From positions 1 to 52,547 of IMG/VR virus record IMGVR_UViG_3300032224_000653: a DNA stretch of 52,547 bases. One strand, given 5' to 3'. The DNA comes from a virus. Taxonomy: Duplodnaviria > Caudoviricetes. Shown here piece after piece: positions 22,810 to 45,906 of the stretch. Numbering within the stretch: position 1 is the stretch's first letter; each line of letters starts with the position of its first letter. The notes below the pieces were generated by a model. It did not search any database. It saw only the letters and a program-made list of their open reading frames with translations, and was not told the DNA's origin. The translations under genes were made by a program, and so were the position numbers.

Positions 22810-23328
22810 TTATACTGCGAAGTCTGCCGCTGCTGTGGTAGAGCCACCAAACTTCTCACCATCTTCCAACTTCTGCACGTTGTTTAAACCTGCCGCGATG
22901 CCCTTAGAGCCACTTGTATCGTACGGATACAATGTGATTGATGCACGACCATAGCAACCTGAGTAGAACTCGCTGGTGTCAATGATAGGGTTCAAGTCGG
23001 CGTCAACAATACCTGGCTTTTCGTTAGAGCTGGCGTTGATGAAGTAGTGACCTGCGTATGCTGGGTCATCCTTCTCTGCGTCACCGTCACGTAGACCACC
23101 CTTGAGTGTCTTAGGAATAGAGCCACCCCATACTACGGCGTTGGCCGTCTTGGTGTCCTCGAATGCCTTCTTAAAGCGGTTTACTGTGTCTGTGTCAGAC
23201 TTAGGGATCAAGATTGAAACTGAGTACTTTAACACGCCGTTAGGTGTCTCAGCAGGCTGGAACACGTTAGCGTAAGAGAAACGTACTTTGCCAGTTACAA
23301 ACTTGGTCTTGATTGATTTTGATGCCAT
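22810..23328 (-). CDS. Single-stranded DNA-binding protein (DUF2815 / gp2.5-like)
   Basis: VRFSYANVF, KYSVSILIPK, LRDGD, FYSGCY, GLNNVQ; acidic tail ending DFAV. Confidence 0.9.
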   Translation of the reverse strand: MASKSIKTKFVTGKVRFSYANVFQPAETPNGVLKYSVSILIPKSDTDTVNRFKKAFEDTKTANAVVWGGSIPKTLKGGLRDGDAEKDDPAYAGHYFINASSNEKPGIVDADLNPIIDTSEFYSGCYGRASITLYPYDTSGSKGIAAGLNNVQKLEDGEKFGGSTTAAADFAV

Positions 23329-23396
23329 GATGATTATTTCCTTTTTAACATAAAGACTGGTCTTCAATTGGGGCCAGTCTGTCTACCCATACTGCT

Positions 23397-23408
23397 ACTA
23401 ATACGCAA
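23397..23408 (-). promoter_or_regulatory. Phage promoter TTGCGTATTAGT upstream of SSB-RNR
   Basis: ACTAATACGCAA on the plus strand, intergenic. Confidence 0.75.
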
Positions 23409-23441
23409 ATCTACTATTTACTATTTCACAATGTGATAAAG

Positions 23442-36072: not shown

Positions 36073-36084
36073 ACTAATACGCAA
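36073..36084 (-). promoter_or_regulatory. Phage promoter TTGCGTATTAGT upstream of primase
   Basis: ACTAATACGCAA on the plus strand. Confidence 0.75.
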
Positions 36085-36181
36085 AATGACCTGTTTGCAT
36101 TCCACAGTGTGAAATAATAATTCTATATAACTAAAAGTAGTAGATATTGTGATTTTCATAACCAAACCATGAACAAGTCAC

Positions 36182-36347
36182 GGGGTTACGGGGGTTGCGT
36201 GGGTATATTTCCAGTTCCTTACCCTTGCTTACGCTTTCTTTTAAAAAATTTTAAAAAATAGTAAAAAGACCTCGTAACCCCTGCAACCCCTGTACCGACC
36301 TTGTAAGTCATTGATTTTATTGAAAACAGATGATAATGATTCTCAAT
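36182..36347. repeat. Origin-like element, copy 1 (inverted iterons, AT-rich core, IHF site, Fur box)
   Basis: GGGGTTACGGGGGTTGC 36182-36198 / GTAACCCCTGCAACCCC 36274-36290 around A/T tracts; IHF consensus 36304-36316; next to primase. Confidence 0.65.
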
Positions 36348-37368
36348 AGCAGGTAACGTACTGGCCGTTGACTATGCAGACCCTCTGCCCCCCGTCCGGC
36401 AGGTTAATAATTATTGGGTTTGCCAGCGCCACGGCTATATGTCCTAAAAAGTATAAGGCCGTGAAAAGTAATAACAGTTTAATGAATATGTTCATAGCAT
36501 CACCTCGTGTCCTTTTTGTTCTACAATCCGATAGGCCCACTTGCGAAAGGCCTCCCTGTTTTTTGTGGTCTGCTCGTCTTGTGGATCCCACACGGCGTCC
36601 ACCACGTGCTTGCCTGTCGCCTCGTCACTGAATGCTATGGTGTTGAGGTTGCCGTCCTTGTCGAAGTACTCCACCGGAATAACCTTGGCCATTTAGATCT
36701 CCTTTACTTGGGTTTGTTTTTCACGCCACGAGTCTGTCGTGCCGTAGTCGCCACGGATCATGCTCATGCGCTCTGTCTTTCTAAACTCAGGCTCGATTGC
36801 CCACCACGCCAAGGATGCCTCCTTGTACTCGAGCCAGTTGTCGTTTTGTTCAAAGAGTGGGTGGTTCATGCCCTCGTAGTCTACTGTGCGCACGACGTCG
36901 GAGGTTGTTTGCCACTCGCCCTTGTTGTGCCTGCGGTACTGGCCTAGTGATACGTTGTTGCGTGCGGCAATAAAGCGCTGGTAGGCACGTGTCTGTTCTT
37001 GTGTAAATGTTGTCATATTAGCTCCATGTTCTGTGTTGTTCGGCGACCCACTCTAGGCCGTCGTATTCATCAATCTGCCACTTTACATCATCGGGGATCT
37101 CAACAATTTTTAAACTGGCAAACCTGCCACCGGACTCTGATCCAATGTCTTGCACTGTCTGTATTAGCGCCGGATCATCACGCTCAATGTCACGAGAATG
37201 AAAGCTCTCCCCCGTCTCAGGGAAAAAGTATTCATACTCATTAGAGAACGCCCATTTGGAGTCTCGCCTGCCAAGATCAAGTCCTTTGATTTTTGCGTAG
37301 TGTTCGGTCGCCTCGTCTGACAATCCAAAACCACCGTGACAGTTGTTAATTACAATTTTATTCGTCAT
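36343..37368 (-). other. Early-region small hypothetical genes (36343-36495, 36492-36692, 36693-37016, 37018-37368)
   Basis: Coupled minus-strand ORFs; 37018-37368 has GGFGLS...RDDPALI...IDEYDGLEW, a recurrent phage hypothetical. Confidence 0.7.
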
Positions 37369-37927
37369 TCTCTTCCTCCAGCTTGTCTAGGTTGAGTGTG
37401 TCCAAGGATGCCGGCTCTTGGATGAGGTAAAACTTGAGCTGATTCACACGCTTGATGGTCTTGTTTAATACCGTGGATAGCTCCTGCACCGTAGGCACTC
37501 GGCCAAGGGTCTGAGTTAGCGCACGCTCGGTGTAGGTCATCTTGCGGATCTCCTCACGCACCTTGATGGGTATGCGTATCAGATTCTCCGTGTTGTCCAG
37601 CCCACGCTCCACGCCACGAAGAATAAAGCCCTTGGCAAAGGTGGCAAACTTGGCGTTGTTGGTCGGGCTCCACTGGCGTGCGGCCTTGAATAGCCCCTCG
37701 TTGCCAAGGCCAATTAGATCCTCCTGCGGCACACGTGAGTGGTTCCACGCCGTTAGCTTGCGCACGGTGTAGACCACAAAGCGCAGGTTGTGCCTGACCA
37801 AGGCCTCGGTGGCGCTCTCGTCGCCCTCCTGTATGCGCTTGGCCAGCACATACTCGTCCTGCGTTGATAGCACGGGTATGCCGTACAGTGACTGCAGGTA
37901 GTCCGTTAAAAAGTCGTTTCTGCTCAT
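37358..37927 (-). CDS. Phage sigma70-family factor with regions 1.2, 2 and 3 but no region 4
   Basis: YLQSL..IPVLS..DE..LAKRI (1.2), LVRHNLRFVV (2.1), DLIGLGNEGL (2.2), KFATFA (2.3), LIRIP, LGRVPTVQEL (3), ASLD (3.2), then stop. Confidence 0.88.
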   Translation of the reverse strand: MSRNDFLTDYLQSLYGIPVLSTQDEYVLAKRIQEGDESATEALVRHNLRFVVYTVRKLTAWNHSRVPQEDLIGLGNEGLFKAARQWSPTNNAKFATFAKGFILRGVERGLDNTENLIRIPIKVREEIRKMTYTERALTQTLGRVPTVQELSTVLNKTIKRVNQLKFYLIQEPASLDTLNLDKLEEENDE

Positions 37928-37929
37928 CG

Positions 37930-40900
37930 TTTGTCCTTATGGATATACTGCGTGGTGTAGATAAGAATCGCCCCCCAGTGGTCACTTAGTGCCAAGAGGA
38001 TGCCCAGTAAAAACCAAAACACGGACGGAAAATAAATGTCCTGATTAAATTGATAGAGCGCTAAGAAGATTAAAAAGCCGCCGATAACTTTCAAAATGGT
38101 GCCTCCGGTAGTATGGTTGATGCTACTTGATATAAATTGGCCTTAGGAGCCCTTGGAAGAGCCCGTAAGGTCATGCCGGCGGTGAGGTAGGGGGTAGCCT
38201 CCAGTTTGCTTACAAACTTCCTACAGGCGCCCCCAAACTCGTCAATCAGTATGTACTTGTAACTGCTCACGCTCTGTCTCCCGTTGTTCTTCTTTCCACT
38301 GTTGCCACACCTCGAGGAGGTTTGTGTCCTCGTATGGTGTTGCAAGGATATGGTCAATAAATTCCTGTTGTTGCTTGTTGATTTTTACGATGGTATTTAG
38401 TCCGTGCATTTTATGCCTCCAGTGGTTTAACAATTACTGCCTTGATGTGTTGGATGGTTGTTACTTGTTTGACAAACTCTTCGTTGCTCAGTTTGCGTAC
38501 CAGTGGTGCGCTGATGTTCTCTCTGTCATACTCTTGCACCTCGGCAAAGAATGACTCACCTTGGTACTCACCTACGCCACGTGCCAAGAGCTCGGCCTTG
38601 AGCTTGTTTTTGATGAGCTCTAGCTCTTTGATTTGCGCATCGACTGCGCCGTACTGGTCAATAATATTTAACATTTAATTCTCCTTATGCGTGTTTTTTG
38701 AATACTAGCTCGTATTGTACACCACTTTGGTTGGTTGCGTCAACAGAAACATACGACTCATGTGCGCCATCTGAATCTACATAAAACTGCCACGCCTGCT
38801 CGGGTGTATCAAACTCCTTGACTAGGTTGATGTTGTGGATGATGGCCAGGGGTGATGAGGCCGTGGCTATGTCACTGGGGGCAAAGGTGCCAAACTCGAT
38901 ATTGCCATAATAGTATGTCGTCTTCATTCAATAATCTCCTCGATGTATGTAACTCTAAACTTGTCTTTTGAGTAGTGGAATGCGTGGATCTGCTCGATGA
39001 CACTAATTGCCTTGTGCATGGATGAGTCCTCGGTCTCATACACCTTGGCCATGCCGTCATCCTGCAACACCATCACCTTGTACTTGCGCCTCATTGTAGT
39101 CCCTCCAAAAAGTCTAGCCATTCTTGGCCTCGGTGCTCGAGCACAAACTCAGGCGAGCCCTTGGTGCCGGCCTTGACCTCGGTGCGTGATGGTATGCGGT
39201 TGCCGTAGTAGTCTTTGAACGACTCGGTGCCTAGCACGCACCATCCGTCACTGATGGCCTGCATCATGGTGCGGCCATAAGAGCCCTGTAGTGACCACAT
39301 CCCGCCGTTGATGGCACGCTGGATGGAGGCGTAGTACTCATACTCGTCTACTGCGTCCTCGGTCTCGATGTTGTTGATGTCCTTGATTGATAGTGTCATA
39401 CTGCCTCCTAACTAAATTGAATTTGTTGGTCTACCTCTTCGAGTGCGGCGATACCACGCCCCACCTCGTCTCGATCCTCTTCCCACTGCTCGATTGTTTC
39501 CTTGTTACCACTGCCACCCTCGTGCTCGTCCACGTACCACTGGGCAAAGTCTGCAAGTCTCTTAATTTTGTTGTACTGCTCGATTGTCATCGTGATATTC
39601 ATACTGCCTCCTCGTGTAATTGAATGCGTGCCTGCTCGGGGTTGTTATACCACCGATTGGCGATCTCTAGTGCGTCCTGCTCATCATGGGCATAGATCGT
39701 GGTGCGGTACTCGTCTGCCAGTAGTAGGTCGTATAGTGCTCCCATTATGCCTCCTCCACCTCAAACACACGCCAGTCGCCTGTCCCATCTAACTCCTTGA
39801 ATAGTCCTCCGTCTAGGTCACGTGCCACGTCCACTGGATCTTGACCCTCCTCTACCTCAAACTCACACACTAGGTCGTATGAGATTGTTGCGTATGCTTT
39901 GTACTTTTTAGTCGTCATTGTCTTGCTCCTCGTCAAATATGTAATATGGCACTTCTAAAAACTCACCCTCAAAGGGTAGGTTGGTCACAAAGTAATTGAT
40001 GCGGTTGACTAGGTGATAGCCGTTGACAATGTACAAATTACCATCATCGCCGTCGACCAGTGTCCAAATATATTTTGGATCCTGAGCACGTACAAACTCG
40101 AGCTCCTCGCCGTAGGTCTCAAACTTGTCATTCTCCCAAAACCCGTCGTTATCAATATGATTCTTTAGTGGTTGGTATTTCTCCTCCCACGCATCGAGCT
40201 CCTGCTCCCAGTCAATTGTCGTTGTCATCGTCCCACTCCTCGGTGTCATAGTCATATACATAAAAGCCTGTGTCCACGGCCTGCTGATAGGCCTTGGAAA
40301 AGGTCGGTGCATCAATGGTGAGGGTGTTGCCCTCTTCGTCTCTAAAGTATGCTGTAATCATGCTGTGTACTCCTTGATAAACTGTTCGGCCTCTTCACGG
40401 GTATCGTATGTTGGCAAACCAACACCAATGCCCCATCCCTTGTGCATTTCCATAACCATAAACTTATCGCCATAGTAACCTGCACGGCGGATCTGATAGA
40501 CTGGGTTCTCACTACGTGGTTGGTTCCAAATCCGTGCGCACTGCTCATTGTATACTGCATCAAATCCGCTCATAAATCCTCCATGTTAGTCTGTTTATTA
40601 TAATGACCTTGCCGGCCATTGTCAAACGTTATTGTAATCTTCCCAGTAATCGTACTCGGATCCGCTCTCAACGGCATCGTGTTGCTCGCAGTCGTCACTC
40701 AGGTACTGGTACGGCCACTCGAATGGATCGAGCTCCCATGCCTTTTCAATGGCCTCATCTTTTGAGTCGGCCTCTACCTCACGCACTAAAAACTGGGTGC
40801 GCACCACGATTACTTTAAATTTAGTCATATCAATTCTCCCATTTAGCTAGTCCATACAAACCATCCTTGACCTGCGCCAAGGTGTTGCGCACTACATTGG

Positions 40901-42202
40901 CCGAGCTCTCGAGCTCGAGCGCCAACTCACTATCACCACGCACATGAGCGCAGTCTGCGAGCTCCACAAGCTCTTTAATATGCGCCCTGAGGGCATACTC
41001 CATTAACTGCCCTTGACGGGTTGTGAGCCCGATCTCAAATTTATTGACTGCCATATTGCCTCCTATTATTCATATACACCGATCTCGCCTGCATTGATCC
41101 ACTCTGCGTGCAGGCCATACTTGTTAAGGATCTCAGTGATCTTGGGGTTGATACCAAAATCCCAGTCGGGGATCCTATAGCCCTCATAGTAGTCCGCCCA
41201 TAGGGTGTCACGGTCGTACTGGCCGGCGATGCCCTCTGCGCTGATCTGAAAATTCTCAATGTCTGAGCGCTCGTACACCGGAGCGCCGATTTTCTTAAGT
41301 GCGTTGAATGCTAGTCTGTGATTGCGATTCATTGTGATGCCTCCTCAATATATTGCTGAATAATTTTAATTGCCTGTTGGGGTTCCATGGTTGATTCGTA
41401 TTTAATTCCGCTCTCGTGTTGGAGCTGAATCTGATACCAATTATTTTGCAACGTGCAGATCACAAAAATATTTGGTTTGACCTCACGCTTGTAAAGTAGT
41501 TTTGCGCTCATTGATTGTGCTCCAATTCGTTAATTAAAAGTGCGTGCTCAGTGGCACGATCCTCGGCTCGGTATAGAGCAATGGCTTGTAAGTTTAAGCT
41601 CTGAGCTCTAGCCACCTGATCAGGGATACTGCCCTCGGGCACCTCGCCGTCAATTATACGGCGTTGTATTGCCACTGATTCAGCCATCATTTGATCTGCG
41701 GTCATCATTATACTGCCTCCTTAAAATGTATATTTTGGGTTAACACCGGCATCTTTTTGATACTGGTTCCACTGGGCGTTAGCCCTAAAATTGGCGATGC
41801 CGTAGACCTTACGCCAGTCTGCGATGCCCTCTTCCTTACAAAAATCTATGACTGCCTGCCGCTCATTACCACAAAAATCCCTAGTGTTGATAATCAAATC
41901 AACGGCGTTGCTGATTACTGCATCTGATATATAGCTCATACTGCCTCCTAGATATTGTATGTTTTTAGGTTACTGGTGAGCACGACTGTATTGCCGAGCT
42001 CGTCATATCCCTGCACTAGGATGTCGCCTAGGTTACTGAATGCACGGGCACGGCGCATCTGTGTCACGCCCTTGGTGCGGTACTCTTGGGTGATGCCGTA
42101 GTCGGCGACCTGTATGCCGTGTATGCCGTTGGTCAATGCAACGTCAATCCAGTCACGCACCAGTGCGACTGCTTGTGAATAAGTGATCTTGGGGTGTGCC
42201 AT
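37930..42202 (-). other. Early region: about 20 small hypothetical genes with strong AGGAGG RBSs
   Basis: Dense minus-strand ORFs, e.g. 38242-38409, 38411-38674, 38685-38927, 39091-39399, 39408-39602, 39908-40228, 40358-40573, 40622-40828, 40830-41054, 41066-41332, 41329-41511, 41508-41708, 41721-41939, 41948-42202. Confidence 0.7.
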
Positions 42203-42218
42203 TGTGGCCTCCTATGTT

Positions 42219-42270
42219 GGTCTCATCAGTGAGCGCATCACGCTCAGACCGGATTGCTCCGGTTTCGACC
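42219..42270 (-). ncRNA. Type II hammerhead ribozyme (downstream copy)
   Basis: GGUC-GAAA-CCGGA(GCAA)UCCGG-UC/UGAGCG(UGAUG)CGCUCA-CUGAUGA-GACC: complete core, three stems, GUC cleavage between 42247 and 42246. Confidence 0.93.
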
Positions 42271-42272
42271 TG

Positions 42273-42605
42273 TTACGCTGTCTCCTTAATTTGCTGTGCT
42301 CGTATAAACTGGAAAAAATCAAGGTTAAAATCGCCCCACTCGCTGGCCTTGTCACCGATCAGTGAGCCCTTGCCGATCAGGTGGTCATACAGGGCGATGC
42401 AGTCCTGATCCAGCGCCGTGGCCAGCACACCGATGCTACCCTTGTGGAATGCGTACTTGATGATCACGGTGGGCTCGTCGCCCTCGTATGATACGTGTAC
42501 GTTGGTGACGTCGCTGATAAACTCGAATGCCTTGGTGAGGGTAAATTCGATGCTGTTGGTGCCCTTAGTAAACGGGTTGTTTAGCCCGATGTTGATTGTA
42601 TACAT
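42273..42605 (-). CDS. Hypothetical protein (110 aa, MYTINIGL...) bracketed by hammerheads
   Basis: AGGAG RBS at 42611-42615; the longer ORF call runs through the ribozyme. Confidence 0.75.
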   Translation of the reverse strand: MYTINIGLNNPFTKGTNSIEFTLTKAFEFISDVTNVHVSYEGDEPTVIIKYAFHKGSIGVLATALDQDCIALYDHLIGKGSLIGDKASEWGDFNLDFFQFIRAQQIKETA

Positions 42606-42624
42606 ATATGCTCCTAGTAATGTT

Positions 42625-42676
42625 GGTCTCATCAGTGAGCGCATGACGCTCAGACCACGTCGCCGTGGTTTCGACC
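42625..42676 (-). ncRNA. Type II hammerhead ribozyme (upstream copy)
   Basis: GGUC-GAAA-CCACG(GCGA)CGUGG-UC/UGAGCG(UCAUG)CGCUCA-CUGAUGA-GACC; stem III covaries with the other copy; cleavage between 42653 and 42652. Confidence 0.93.
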
Positions 42677-42678
42677 TG

Positions 42679-42930
42679 TTACTCGTAGATGATACCCTCA
42701 TCTAGTGCCACCTGATACGCATCCTCGTGGCCTAAGGTTTTAACTAACTCGTAGTCATCGTCTTGGAATTCGTAGATCTCAAAACTAAACTGCTTGGTCT
42801 TGGGATTGTATTCCAATACGTTGATGTCATCTACCTGCCATGTAAGGTTATCGCCTAATTGCTCAGGCAATAATCTTGCAGGCACTACCTTTTTTTGGTC
42901 AATCAATTTAACGATTGTGAAATTAGGCAT
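42679..42930 (-). CDS. First early gene, hypothetical
   Basis: AAGGA RBS; first ORF after the sigma70 promoter. Confidence 0.7.
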   Translation of the reverse strand: MPNFTIVKLIDQKKVVPARLLPEQLGDNLTWQVDDINVLEYNPKTKQFSFEIYEFQDDDYELVKTLGHEDAYQVALDEGIIYE

Positions 42931-43145
42931 GGTGTATTCCTTTATATTGGTTGATTAGTACTGCCTCGAGCGCACTACATTGTAATGCGCTCTGAGCATT
43001 ACTATCACGGCTGTTGAGACTACTTAGCTCCGCCGGTATATCTTCGCTAGGTCTGTTTCTATATCCTAGGTCTGCCACATGATTATACAGGTTGGTACTT
43101 AGTCGCCTGTTGAGTAGATTAGCTACTGCACTTCCAATAACATCT

Positions 43146-43173
43146 ATTATCCGACCTTTGAGACGAATGTCAA
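43146..43173 (-). promoter_or_regulatory. Host sigma70 early promoter TTGACA-N16-GATAAT
   Basis: Perfect -35, 5/6 -10, pointing into the early region. Confidence 0.7.
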
Positions 43174-43465
43174 CAACTATTTGCAAATAGTTTGCGATCC
43201 TTATATCTATTGGGTTTGCCGGCGATATGAATACCTGAGCAATTTGTAGGGTTATTATGGGGCGCAGTTGTCCTGATTGCCTGTTGTTTCTCGCCCACCA
43301 TCGAGCTCCTCCCCTCACGCCCGCATAGCCCTGAGAGCCTTACAAACACTGGAAGACTAGAGATCGCCACATAGCCAAGGGGGTAGCCCCACCTCTTGCC
43401 AACTCGGCTCTATGACCCCTTAAAACCCCTCCAATCCGTCAATAGGTGTTTACCCTAATAGCCAT

Positions 43466-43605
43466 GTTAGTTAGTACTCACTAACGCTATGCACCAGTAT
43501 GGTGCATGGGTTAGGTGTGTGAGTGCTCACTTACTTAGCGCACCATGTTGGTGCATTGGTGTAAGTGTGTGAGTGCTTACTTACTTAGCGCACCATACTG
43601 GTGCA
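43466..43605. repeat. Three ~50-bp tandem units, each a GTGAGTGCTCAC-type palindrome plus an NtrC box
   Basis: TGCACCAGTATGGTGCA 43490-43506, CGCACCATGTTGGTGCA 43539-43555, CGCACCATACTGGTGCA 43589-43605. Confidence 0.8.
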
Positions 43606-43644
43606 CGGGACTATGAGGCTACGCAGACTGGGTGCTGGGCGCGT

Positions 43645-43661
43645 GGCAAGAAGCGTGCCAG
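43645..43661 (-). promoter_or_regulatory. sigma54 (-24/-12) site
   Basis: Minus strand CTGGCACG-CTTC-TTGC-C vs consensus YTGGCACGNNNNTTGCW; overlapping GG-N10-GC on the plus strand too. Confidence 0.65.
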
Positions 43662-43806
43662 CCCCATTGCACGATGTGAGATAGCGTTTCACAATGCGAA
43701 ATGCGGGTCCCTAAACCTAAACGGCATCACCCCTTTTAGGGTACCGGCCCGGTGGGGGCGGAGGCCCCATGCCAAACCTCAAGTTTGTATAATTTTTTTG
43801 TAGAAA

Positions 43807-44059
43807 AATCAAGCACTTACATATTGCTAAATAGTAAATGATAATCATTCTCATCTGTTTCTATATAAATCAAGGACTTAGCGCATCGGTCCCGGGGTTA
43901 CGGGGGTTACATACCCTTTTTATTATTTTTTAAAATTTTTTAAAAAAAGCGTAAGCGTGGGTGGGGGAGGTTAAAATATGGCTCGTAACCCCTGCAACCC
44001 TGGGACCAAACGTGTAAGTTGTTGATTTTGTTCAATCCAAATGATAATCATTATCATTT
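43807..44059. repeat. Origin-like element, copy 2, with flanking IHF sites and Fur boxes
   Basis: 23-bp inverted repeat 43888-43910 / 43985-44007 (3 mismatches); IHF 43807-43819, 43868-43880, 44015-44027; Fur 43837-43854, 44039-44059. Confidence 0.65.
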
Positions 44060-44077
44060 ACTTTATTTAATTACGAC

Positions 44078-44107
44078 GAGGCGTATTGTGGCAATCTGCG
44101 TATTAGT
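44078..44107 (+). promoter_or_regulatory. Phage promoter GAGGCG-N15-CGTATTAGT (leaderless)
   Basis: Motif ends 6 nt before ATG 44114. Confidence 0.7.
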
Positions 44108-44434: not shown

Positions 44435-44951
44435 ATGAAAAGATTAAATACAATTACAAATAAACCCTTTAACCGCGGGGACGTACGAAAAGACGGATAT
44501 TTCTTTTTGGGTTATCAAACAAAAAAAAAATAAAAACGGATATTTTTATGAGGCTTGGGTTAGACCAGAAGTTTGGAAAAATCAAATTACTGGCGAAAAA
44601 AGCACTTTAGAAAAACATGTTAGAAGAACATTATCTCATGTAAAATCAAAAGCCAAAAAACAAAATATCCCATTTGATTTGTCTGTACAATACGCAATAT
44701 CAATTGTTTCTGAAACGTGCCCGGCTTTAGGAATAAAATTAAATTGGGCGTCACAAAATGGAATGCAAAGGGAAGCAAGTCCCTCATTAGATAAAATAAT
44801 CCCAGAATTGGGATATGTTGAAGAAAACGTCATGTGGTTGTCGTTTAAAGCAAATTTAATGAAAAACAATGCAAACCAAAAACAACTTAAAAAATTCGCA
44901 GAATGGATTTTGAATGGCCATATTGGCAACACAAAGGGTGTTAACCCATAA
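44435..44951 (+). pseudogene. HNH-like endonuclease frameshifted at an A10 run
   Basis: MKRLNTITNKPFNRGD... stops at TAA 44531; removing one A from 44521-44530 joins it to ...GYFYEAW...CPALG...SPSLDKIIPELGYVEENV. Confidence 0.75.
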
Positions 44952-45906
44952 CTACTGGAAATTTGCGGATGACCTGGTGCCGGGCGATGTGGTCTTTGAC
45001 CAACACGGACGACCGGTAACCATCACGCTCGCGCAGACCTACCGCTCGGCGCACTGCTACGAGGTGATGTTTAACGACTACCTCACGGTAAGGGGCGACA
45101 TCAGGATGTCCCTGGCGCTAGAGGACCGCAGGTATCGCTTCCGTTCTGACGCACACCGAGGCAGACACCAGTTCAGGCGCCCGCTTAAGGTCAAGACGAT
45201 AGAGGACCTACTCAGCGAGTCCATGCTCGACCACCGAAACCGAAAAACTTACTCGGTCCCCACCACACAACCCATCGAGCTGCCGCACCAGACGCTCCCC
45301 GTGCCGCCTTTTATCTTTGGTTTTTGGTTTTTTAACCACAAACTAAACGGCAACATGTGCCCAACCACTGGCCATGAAGACTTTATCTTGGAAAAATTCC
45401 AGGATCATGGCTATCTGATCAAAGAAAAAGACCTCAACCACCGCGGCGAGCGTAACTTTACGACTACCCCCACCGTCGTCTCTCACTTGGTCCCGGATAT
45501 TCCCACCAAGATACCCAACAACTACCTACTCGGGTCCGCCGAGCAGCGTTTTGAGCTGCTTCAGGGCATTTTGTTTGCAAAAAACCGCTCGTTTAACAAA
45601 ACCAGCCAACAGTTTCGGTTTACGAGCCTGAGCAAGACCTACGTTACGCAGGTTCAGTACCTGGCGGAGTCGCTCGGCTGCAGGACAAAGGTAGACTACG
45701 ACCCACACAACAAAAACTACACCATATTTATCAAGACAAAGCTACAGATCCACCCGGCGCAGAGGGTAAACCCTAACGCCAAGCACATCGCCCGACGATT
45801 TGTGACAGAAATCAATCCCGTCCCCTCCCAGCTGTGTGTTCACATCGAGACAAACGGCGCGGACCAGACCATTCTTGTGGGGGAGGGCTTCATAGCGTGT
45901 CTTTAA
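44914..45906 (+). CDS. Free-standing intein-like protein (Hint + degenerate LAGLIDADG)
   Basis: W....DLVPGDVVFDQHGRPVTI, CYEVMFND, LPVPPFIFGFW, KIPNNYLLGSAEQRFELLQGI, CVHIE...ILVGEGFI; no exteins, no terminal HN. Confidence 0.8.
   Translation: MAILATQRVLTHNYWKFADDLVPGDVVFDQHGRPVTITLAQTYRSAHCYEVMFNDYLTVRGDIRMSLALEDRRYRFRSDAHRGRHQFRRPLKVKTIEDLLSESMLDHRNRKTYSVPTTQPIELPHQTLPVPPFIFGFWFFNHKLNGNMCPTTGHEDFILEKFQDHGYLIKEKDLNHRGERNFTTTPTVVSHLVPDIPTKIPNNYLLGSAEQRFELLQGILFAKNRSFNKTSQQFRFTSLSKTYVTQVQYLAESLGCRTKVDYDPHNKNYTIFIKTKLQIHPAQRVNPNAKHIARRFVTEINPVPSQLCVHIETNGADQTILVGEGFIACL

Follow-up and report, generated by a model that had tools for sequence, protein, structure and literature searches.

The DNA examined here (the window) is IMG/VR virus record IMGVR_UViG_3300032224_000653, 52,547 bp long, linear and ~81% complete, and the element in question is an array of short palindromes, among them sequences matching the binding sites of the bacterial nitrogen regulator NtrC and of sigma-54 RNA polymerase. 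Minus-strand genes at 18.6-42.9 kb encode a DNA polymerase, a ribonucleotide reductase, an SNF2 helicase, a P4/D5-type primase, and many small proteins; plus-strand genes from 44,114 on encode an HNH-like protein, the large terminase (TerL), the portal, and structural proteins. The array was placed in the single large gene-free stretch that divides this minus-strand early block from the plus-strand late block, 2.2 kb upstream of the large terminase gene. Between 43319 and 44113, open reading frames (ORFs) of at least 40 aa comprised only one 76-aa and one 45-aa frame.

Three exact boxes form the core of the array (Table 1) and recur every 49-50 bp within the gene-free region, as had been claimed in an earlier reading of the sequence (the original prediction). 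When both strands of the 52,547 bases were searched with GCACCANNNTGGTGC, allowing up to three mismatches, 29 matches were returned against 25.45 expected, which is near chance. Boxes 1-3 were the only matches without mismatches, none had one mismatch, and 3 of the 29 had two; it is the exact copies alone that stand out from chance. Tandem Repeats Finder reported a repeat of period 50 with 2.4 copies (score 171, 43491-43609), and a repeat search recovered three copies of 49 nt, spaced 49 and 50. The boxes equal the NtrC consensus TGCACCAnnnTGGTGCA as given in a paper on the Escherichia coli RpoN/NtrC regulon (PMC8743547), which bears out their assignment to NtrC by consensus; boxes 2 and 3 begin with C rather than T. 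Each box is preceded by a second palindrome (motif A) ending 4 nt ahead of it, again as described before, and the imperfect palindrome TAGGTGTTTACCCTA proposed at the left end of the array was also present.

Table 1. Elements of the control region and related copies in the window
Feature	Position	Strand	Description
Sigma-70-type promoter	43173->43146	minus	TTGACA-16-GATAAT; 11/12 consensus positions
Left anchor	43443-43457		imperfect palindrome TAGGTGTTTACCCTA; conserved left anchor of the array
Motif A, copy 1	43466-43485		GTTAGT...ACTAAC palindrome
Box 1	43490-43506	palindrome	TGCACCAGTATGGTGCA, TGCACCA-GTA-TGGTGCA; 0 mismatches
Motif A, copy 2	43515-43534		part of 49-nt repeat family D1
Box 2	43539-43555	palindrome	CGCACCATGTTGGTGCA, (C)GCACCA-TGT-TGGTGCA; 0 mismatches in 15-nt core
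Motif A, copy 3	43565-43584		part of 49-nt repeat
Box 3	43589-43605	palindrome	CGCACCATACTGGTGCA, (C)GCACCA-TAC-TGGTGCA; 0 mismatches in 15-nt core
Sigma-54 -24/-12 site	43644-43660	minus exact (43660->43646); plus weaker (43644-43658)	pattern match
CACAATG-type motif pair	43676-43706		right edge of the array; repeat family D6; also in relatives
Right anchor	43704-43800		GC-rich inverted repeats (I14), then T run; conserved in 14-21 of 87 relatives
Fur-box-like palindrome	43837-43852		1 mismatch; in promoter-like element
Exact 19-bp Fur box	44040-44058		AATGATAAT-C-ATTATCATT; 0 mismatches; in promoter-like element upstream of first late gene
Promoter-like element copies (~110 nt)	36236-36345, 43839-43948, 43974-44062		

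To the right of the boxes lies the candidate sigma-54 site. Searches with TGGCACGNNNNTTGC at up to two mismatches gave 19 window matches against 17.46 expected, of which the minus-strand site was the sole exact one. This site (TGGCACG-N4-TTGC) scored 11/12 on a 12-position scale that includes the 3' W position, contains the glnAp2-type core (-24 GG, -12 GC, TGGCAC-N5-TTGC), and fits letter for letter the RpoN motif TGGCACnnTTnTTGC of the same regulon paper (PMC8743547). The plus reading, offset by two bases, had two mismatches and scored 9/12. Both strands can be read because the site is also a TGGCA-N7-TGCCA palindrome, and the earlier description of a near-perfect site on both strands holds in this form, exact on the minus strand and two mismatches away on the plus. 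Transcription was predicted to start at ~43634 on the minus strand, toward the boxes and the early genes, and at ~43670 on the plus strand, in agreement with the starts proposed previously (43633 and 43670). Relatives have 33-bp pairs of sigma-54 sites that face each other, and the window has the right-hand member of such a pair without the left.

The sigma-70-type promoter to the left was the sole window match to TTGACA-N15-18-GATAAT (0.02 expected), can also be read in relatives L002, L104, and L074/L078, and most likely drives the leftward early operon. Since it lies left of the array and fires leftward, the array is upstream of it and outside its transcript. A 131-aa frame (42923-43318) overlies the promoter together with a stretch (42950-43175) that was conserved as DNA in 21-26 of 87 relatives by blastn, exceeding the adjacent genes; because of this overlap and of DNA conservation higher than that of the neighbouring gene, the frame is probably not a gene, and we treated it as non-coding. 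A structured leader may be encoded by these same ~200 nt, which separate the early promoter from the first early gene.

Distribution and variation among relatives

Relatives of the phage were collected by two scans of IMG/VR. The first, with the large terminase, identified 414 contigs encoding a relative, the best 80 of which were 84-91% identical, and the second, for two boxes 25-40 nt apart, identified 64 viral contigs. From every locus that reached far enough we took the region extending 1,400 nt upstream from the first late gene, giving 118 regions (88 non-redundant, the window included); 45 of the non-redundant regions came from the terminase scan alone and form a set unbiased with respect to boxes. 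The motifs were conserved in over 80 contigs of this widespread, uncultured family, originating from several studies of lakes and fresh water.

In the unbiased set, at least one exact box was found in 32 of 45 regions and at least two in 23. All 66 boxes of this set fell within this upstream interval, and no exact box was present in the other 368,039 bp of the same loci. The four boxes in the region of a complete 63-kb relative, G002, were likewise the only ones in its genome. Copy number ranged from 0 to 8, and both spacing and order varied. Across the 88 regions, the most frequent 6-nt inverted repeats were the box (75 regions), AGTGAG-NN-CTCACT (28), GTTAGT-N4/8-ACTAAC (21-22), and TAGGGT-NN-ACCCTA (18), and the block of the left anchor TAGGTGTTTACCCTA was the best-conserved DNA, with blastn cover in ~29 of 87 relatives. 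Motif A belongs to the second and third of these palindrome families; its description as TetR-like had no basis, and it constitutes a conserved motif family for which comparison with known operator sequences yielded no reliable binder. A motif-A arm adjoined 86 of 239 boxes as compared to 54 of 880 random positions, and the gap between arm and box was 4 nt in 60 of 100 arm-box pairs, such that the unit seen in the window is a recurrent composite module. Conservation of the palindromes in relatives, on which the original prediction had made itself depend, was thus found, both motifs being enriched and kept.

Sigma-54 sites in the relatives were scored over 12 positions, with GG and GC required at the right distance. 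In 64,920 bp of array regions, 37 sites scored at least 11/12; TerL coding DNA (121,110 bp) held no such site, and 20 shuffles gave three. The spacer differed between copies while the -24 and -12 parts were fixed, which is as expected for sites of sigma-54.

The pattern of substitutions in the boxes was also informative. Among the 239 exact boxes, 27 different N3 triplets were observed, and 149 boxes represented the full 17-mer. In 119 near-boxes with one or two mismatches, changes were concentrated at half-site position 1 (102), followed by positions 6 (17) and 7 (13), and positions 2-5 were nearly untouched (3, 0, 3, and 2, respectively). The published description of the NtrC site, which puts the strongest conservation at GCA and the inner A (PMC8743547), agrees with this broadly yet partially, in that position 7 varies more and position 5 less in the phages. 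Judged by these substitutions, the boxes behave as protein sites and not as hairpins. That the palindromes instead act as RNA stem-loops, in a transcribed leader or a small RNA, we consider very unlikely. Each module constitutes a perfect short hairpin, transcription from the exact sigma-54 site would cross the boxes, and weak hairpin-type Rfam matches exist; however, no compensatory pattern was seen, the stems were invariant in sequence, and 16 of 21 two-mismatch near-boxes were asymmetric. Moreover, the Rfam matches on the array were only weak, miRNA-type, and all far below thresholds, and the transcript of the early sigma-70 promoter excludes the array. Folding of 43668-43802 was not significant (z of -1.27 and -0.50), and a sigma-54-driven small RNA considered for that interval was rejected on this ground. 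RNA folding of the right anchor was not significant on either strand.

Contigs, rather than reads, of four sequencing runs were aligned to the window; close relatives were present in lake-water and freshwater runs of several studies. In contigs of three lake or freshwater runs, none of the 12 differences listed between 43490 and 43606 fell in a half-site, whereas N3 spacers accounted for three of them and the flanking letter for two. The close relatives in lake-water runs carried the region in pieces with module-level joints, and the joints in these contigs indicate that close strains exchange or skip the entire array in the manner of a cassette. In the 13 box-less regions of the unbiased set, other palindromes occupied the same place.

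Many related contigs stop within a few hundred bases of the array, and a GC-rich inverted repeat and the HNH-like gene are nearby, features that would fit a genome end or packaging site at which host or phage proteins coat or mark the DNA close to the terminase genes. This we regard as most improbable. The contig ends lay at different positions, a pattern typical of assemblies that break in repeats; the region is traversed in other contigs and in the window itself; and the direct terminal repeats of two complete relatives, G002 and G004, hold no fixed position relative to the array. No place was found where many molecules begin or end in the aligned contigs. The idea of a protein-coated genome end, one of the options in the original prediction, therefore found no support in the scattered contig ends or in the terminal repeats.

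Host regulation, sequestration, or a phage protein

Our tentative interpretation, to which we would give slightly less than an even chance, is that the boxes and the adjoining palindrome are sites of host NtrC and sigma-54 through which nitrogen status is conveyed to a control region upstream of the sigma-70 promoter. The three boxes would be high-affinity sites for host NtrC, and the palindrome would bind host sigma-54 RNA polymerase. Once phosphorylated in response to nitrogen limitation, NtrC would assemble on the boxes and, acting in cis, activate the sigma-54 polymerase at 43644-43660. From the minus site, a nitrogen-dependent transcript beginning at ~43634 would cross the boxes and the sigma-70 promoter before entering the early operon, making a tandem sigma-54/sigma-70 arrangement; the plus reading would rely on the weaker core, with boxes at -73, -123, and -172. 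These sites make up one module of a reshuffled gene-free region in a family of freshwater phages, between the leftward early promoter (43173-43146) and the rightward late genes from 44114. From the sequences we infer binding by NtrC and sigma-54, a proteobacterial host possessing both, the direction of transcription, and any effect on the phage.

Arrangements of the kind seen at bacterial nitrogen promoters were found outside the phage family. A search of 185,579 bacterial and archaeal genomes with the tandem-box pattern returned 55 stretches, most of which were repeat elements in a few metagenome-assembled genomes (MAGs) or coding repeats and gave no clue to the host. The pattern did pick out the region upstream of glnA-ntrB in Morganella, a positive control in which two exact boxes precede a sigma-54 site by ~107 and 152 nt, this site being itself between the boxes and glnA. 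Two viral contigs are comparable. In the last 900 bases (reverse strand) of L101, which has none of the eight window proteins tested, two boxes are located ~220 and 177 nt upstream of TGGCACG-N4-TTGCA, ~32 nt before a start codon. In L139 (3490-3800), from a lineage with a gpA-type terminase, boxes are at ~-263, -222, and -99 relative to a sigma-54-like site situated 35 nt ahead of a 256-aa gene; a Pfam scan of the protein gave no match. Canonical geometry in the plus reading and in these two other viral lineages favours nitrogen sensing.

Separately, tandem boxes were present at many intergenic places in one Enterobacterales MAG (L145-L196, 13 contigs) and at seven loci of one Arenicellales MAG chromosome, in both cases within a repeated element; these may be NtrC sites or a mobile repeat.

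Several observations weigh against a promoter that senses nitrogen in cis. In the minus reading the boxes are downstream of the start, at +37, +87, and +136, and in the plus reading, where they hold the canonical positions of glnAp2-type promoters (two or more NtrC sites ~70-200 bp ahead of the start), the core scored just 9/12. Promoter and enhancer were not kept together in the relatives. A sigma-54-like site (score of at least 10) was found in just 18 of 88 regions compared with 75 for the box palindrome, so that most box arrays are without a nearby sigma-54 promoter. Many of the sigma-54 sites are arranged as 33-bp face-to-face pairs in which each predicted start is inside the partner. Several relatives have sites interleaved with boxes 3-12 bp away, or sites whose predicted start is overlain by a box. 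No clear pattern of helical phasing was seen in the box spacing. Furthermore, at least 54 of the 64 tandem-box contigs belonged to the phage family (tblastn with eight window proteins), and the complete 65.9-kb relative G004 has no box at all, which makes the box element dispensable; G005 is likewise without boxes. Of the ten remaining tandem-box contigs, nine had no tblastn match and one a distant match; L123 and L136 clearly have the family's non-coding motifs, and L083 and L114 have some of them.

The face-to-face and packed geometry of the sigma-54 sites appears better suited to binding than to productive initiation, and the rarity of these sites, the poor geometry, and the dispensability in G004 are better explained if the array acts as a sponge. 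Replicating phage DNA would then soak up NtrC and sigma-54 holoenzyme (perhaps Fur and others) in trans, blunting the host nitrogen-stress programme without driving a phage transcript. The array has the make-up of a decoy in that tandem, putatively high-affinity sites vary in copy number and hold no fixed relation to a promoter. Perfect consensus sites, as in the 149 full 17-mers, the 0-8 copies with variable spacing and order, the sigma-54 sites placed face to face or packed 3-12 bp from boxes, the clustering of several site families, and the swapping or skipping of whole arrays between close strains are all in keeping with sequestration, as is the binding of sigma-54 holoenzyme to DNA in an inactive state, described in PMC4591121. 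Even so, we consider it unlikely. Confinement to one promoter-adjacent region is needless for a pure sponge; one or two boxes only, as carried by 26 of 45 unbiased relatives, are few for this purpose; the promoter geometry of L101, L139, and the plus reading points to use in cis; and our literature searches found no phage precedent. A wider version, in which NtrC, sigma-54 holoenzyme, and possibly Fur would be drawn to replicating DNA, switching off host nitrogen- and iron-stress programmes in trans by means of cassettes that strains would exchange to match their host, seems to us similarly doubtful. Canonical geometry speaks for sensing; the perfection of the sites, their variable number, and the face-to-face placement of sigma-54 sites speak for a decoy, and the data favour neither decisively. 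The original prediction had offered nitrogen sensing and a decoy as options; each gained supporting evidence, and the choice between them was not decided.

Alternatively, the sites could belong to a phage protein, as operators, origin iterons, or packaging sites, their likeness to host consensus sequences being coincidental or a form of mimicry. We think this improbable, too. In its favour are the predominance of one family among the tandem-box contigs, the different palindromes of box-less relatives, which look as if specificity had been swapped, the fixed 4-nt gap to motif A, the nearness of the large terminase gene, and an adjoining AT-rich tract with phage-specific short repeats that differ between relatives. 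Nonetheless, half-sites were invariant across relatives with primases 55-82% identical, and the early genes beside the array were highly mosaic as the boxes stayed unchanged. Among four whole relatives, the one whose replication genes most resemble those of the window was box-less G004 (primase 82%, reductase 85%). When window ORFs of at least 45 aa were compared with these four (G001 and G002 with boxes, G004 and G005 without), no real ORF was common to G001 and G002 and absent from G004 and G005; the sole frame fitting the box pattern was antisense inside the portal gene. A six-frame search of the window found no Fis/NtrC-type helix-turn-helix (HTH_8) and no Sigma54_activat domain. One small candidate, a 74-aa ORF at 40830-41054 with a weak Sigma54_DBD match (E of 0.0057 / 0.027), was rejected as the binder because only 1 of 87 relatives has it (L092, which lacks a sigma-54 site) and because L002 and L003, with sigma-54 sites, lack it.

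Host consensus sequences in the region also extend to Fur. The exact Fur box agrees with the consensus as quoted in PMC7641913, and together with two near copies (43837-43852 and 36329-36347) it lies within the three ~110-nt promoter-like elements; Fur-like palindromes occur as modules in the regions of relatives as well. That three motif families should each equal the published consensus of a host global regulator by coincidence is, in our judgement, very unlikely. Unrelated viral contigs and the glnA region have boxes too, and such independent contexts, along with the lack of a co-varying gene, favour a host regulator over a phage protein, a conserved core protein of the phage being the less likely binder.

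Other elements of the region and the window

Two copies of the promoter-like element form a large imperfect palindrome around the AT-rich tract, and the short GC-rich repeats flanking this tract differ between relatives but are mirrored on both sides. A possible role for the tract and its flanking elements is that of a divergent promoter or an origin.

The phage encodes a 189-aa sigma-70-family protein (37358-37927, minus) with regions 1.2, 2, and 3 and without region 4. An 11-nt motif, TGCGTATTAGT, occurred 12 times in the window against 0.85 expected, including at 453, 7354, 20592, 23397, 25015, 28781, 36073, 44097, 44418, and 47363. The two occurrences examined, at 44097 and 36073, were 5-25 nt upstream of a start codon, and the motif is probably the promoter of the phage-encoded sigma. 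CACAATG-type near-palindromes, like those at the right edge of the array, were also located at 23397-23436 and 36073-36112, ~25 nt upstream of two TGCGTATTAGT motifs.

Elsewhere, the HNH-like frame (44679-44951) and a 330-aa frame (44914-45906) matched the insert-bearing part of long terminase families in PHROGs and overlapped, in another frame, the start of the 502-aa large terminase; 44679-45906 may be a degenerate intein or homing-endonuclease insert. An Rfam match to the DUF2815 RNA motif (23326-23389, minus; 73.2 bits against a threshold of 41.2) was found immediately upstream of a 185-aa gene (22810-23367). In the early operon, two 63-nt repeats (42214-42276 and 42620-42682, minus) fold into a three-way junction in which two stems are closed and the third is open; its core we take to be hammerhead-like. 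In 17 related variants from other loci, the core was kept and both closed stems showed compensatory changes; an Rfam search of the repeats (E up to 1) reported nothing.

Relationships to cultured phages were distant. A DNA search with the 821-bp region found no match among them, and TerL identities to the nearest were 53% and 42%. A tRNA search of the window for clues to the host found none.

Known systems and biological meaning

Repeats at phage and plasmid origins include the iteron arrays at the lambda and P4 origins. Like these, the array consists of short palindrome copies in non-coding DNA beside an AT-rich tract, here in a phage with a P4/D5-type primase. Iterons co-vary with their initiator and are essential; in contrast, the boxes are invariant across diverged primases and absent from complete G004 (also from G005).

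By sequence, the closest known system is the glnAp2 promoter of enteric bacteria, which shares the 17-bp NtrC palindrome, the -24/-12 core and, in the plus reading, boxes at -73, -123, and -172. The array differs in being phage-borne, with perfect consensus sites in a tandem 50-bp unit that includes a second palindrome and with no nitrogen-assimilation gene downstream. Its exact sigma-54 reading faces the boxes, and relatives have face-to-face pairs or none.

By function, the closest are the NtcA sites of cyanophages, which number 1-16 per genome in 16 marine T4-like cyanophages, are intergenic, and were proposed to exploit the host nitrogen-stress response (PMC3037559). Common to both is an intergenic consensus of a global nitrogen regulator, in the present case that of the presumed host, which is conserved among related phages. 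NtcA is a CRP-family regulator of cyanobacteria, unlike NtrC/sigma-54, and its sites follow a loose GTA-N8-TAC model and are scattered before many genes, whereas the phage boxes present a 14-base exact consensus in tandem in one region. Repeated high-affinity sites not tied to one promoter could also sequester a regulator, as described for tandem decoy sites in PMC3322331; that system is synthetic and in yeast, and our literature searches turned up no natural phage example. The array is set apart from NtcA sites and glnAp2 by its tandem placement in one region, perfect consensus, mixture with other site families, and apparent exchange as a cassette.

Use of a host nutrient regulator by phages is documented for cyanophages, in the case of NtcA (PMC3037559). 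Our literature searches found no counterpart for NtrC or sigma-54, nor for phages of heterotrophs in lakes. If NtrC binds the boxes, the family would offer a way to learn directly how phage gene expression is shaped by nitrogen limitation, under which lake bacteria usually live; were the array a sponge, it would represent a novel form of host take-over in which no protein is required. The variable, cassette-like composition of the region supplies a natural experiment, in the form of close genomes with and without boxes. Together, the sites suggest that phages of this family may read or manipulate the nitrogen status of their hosts.

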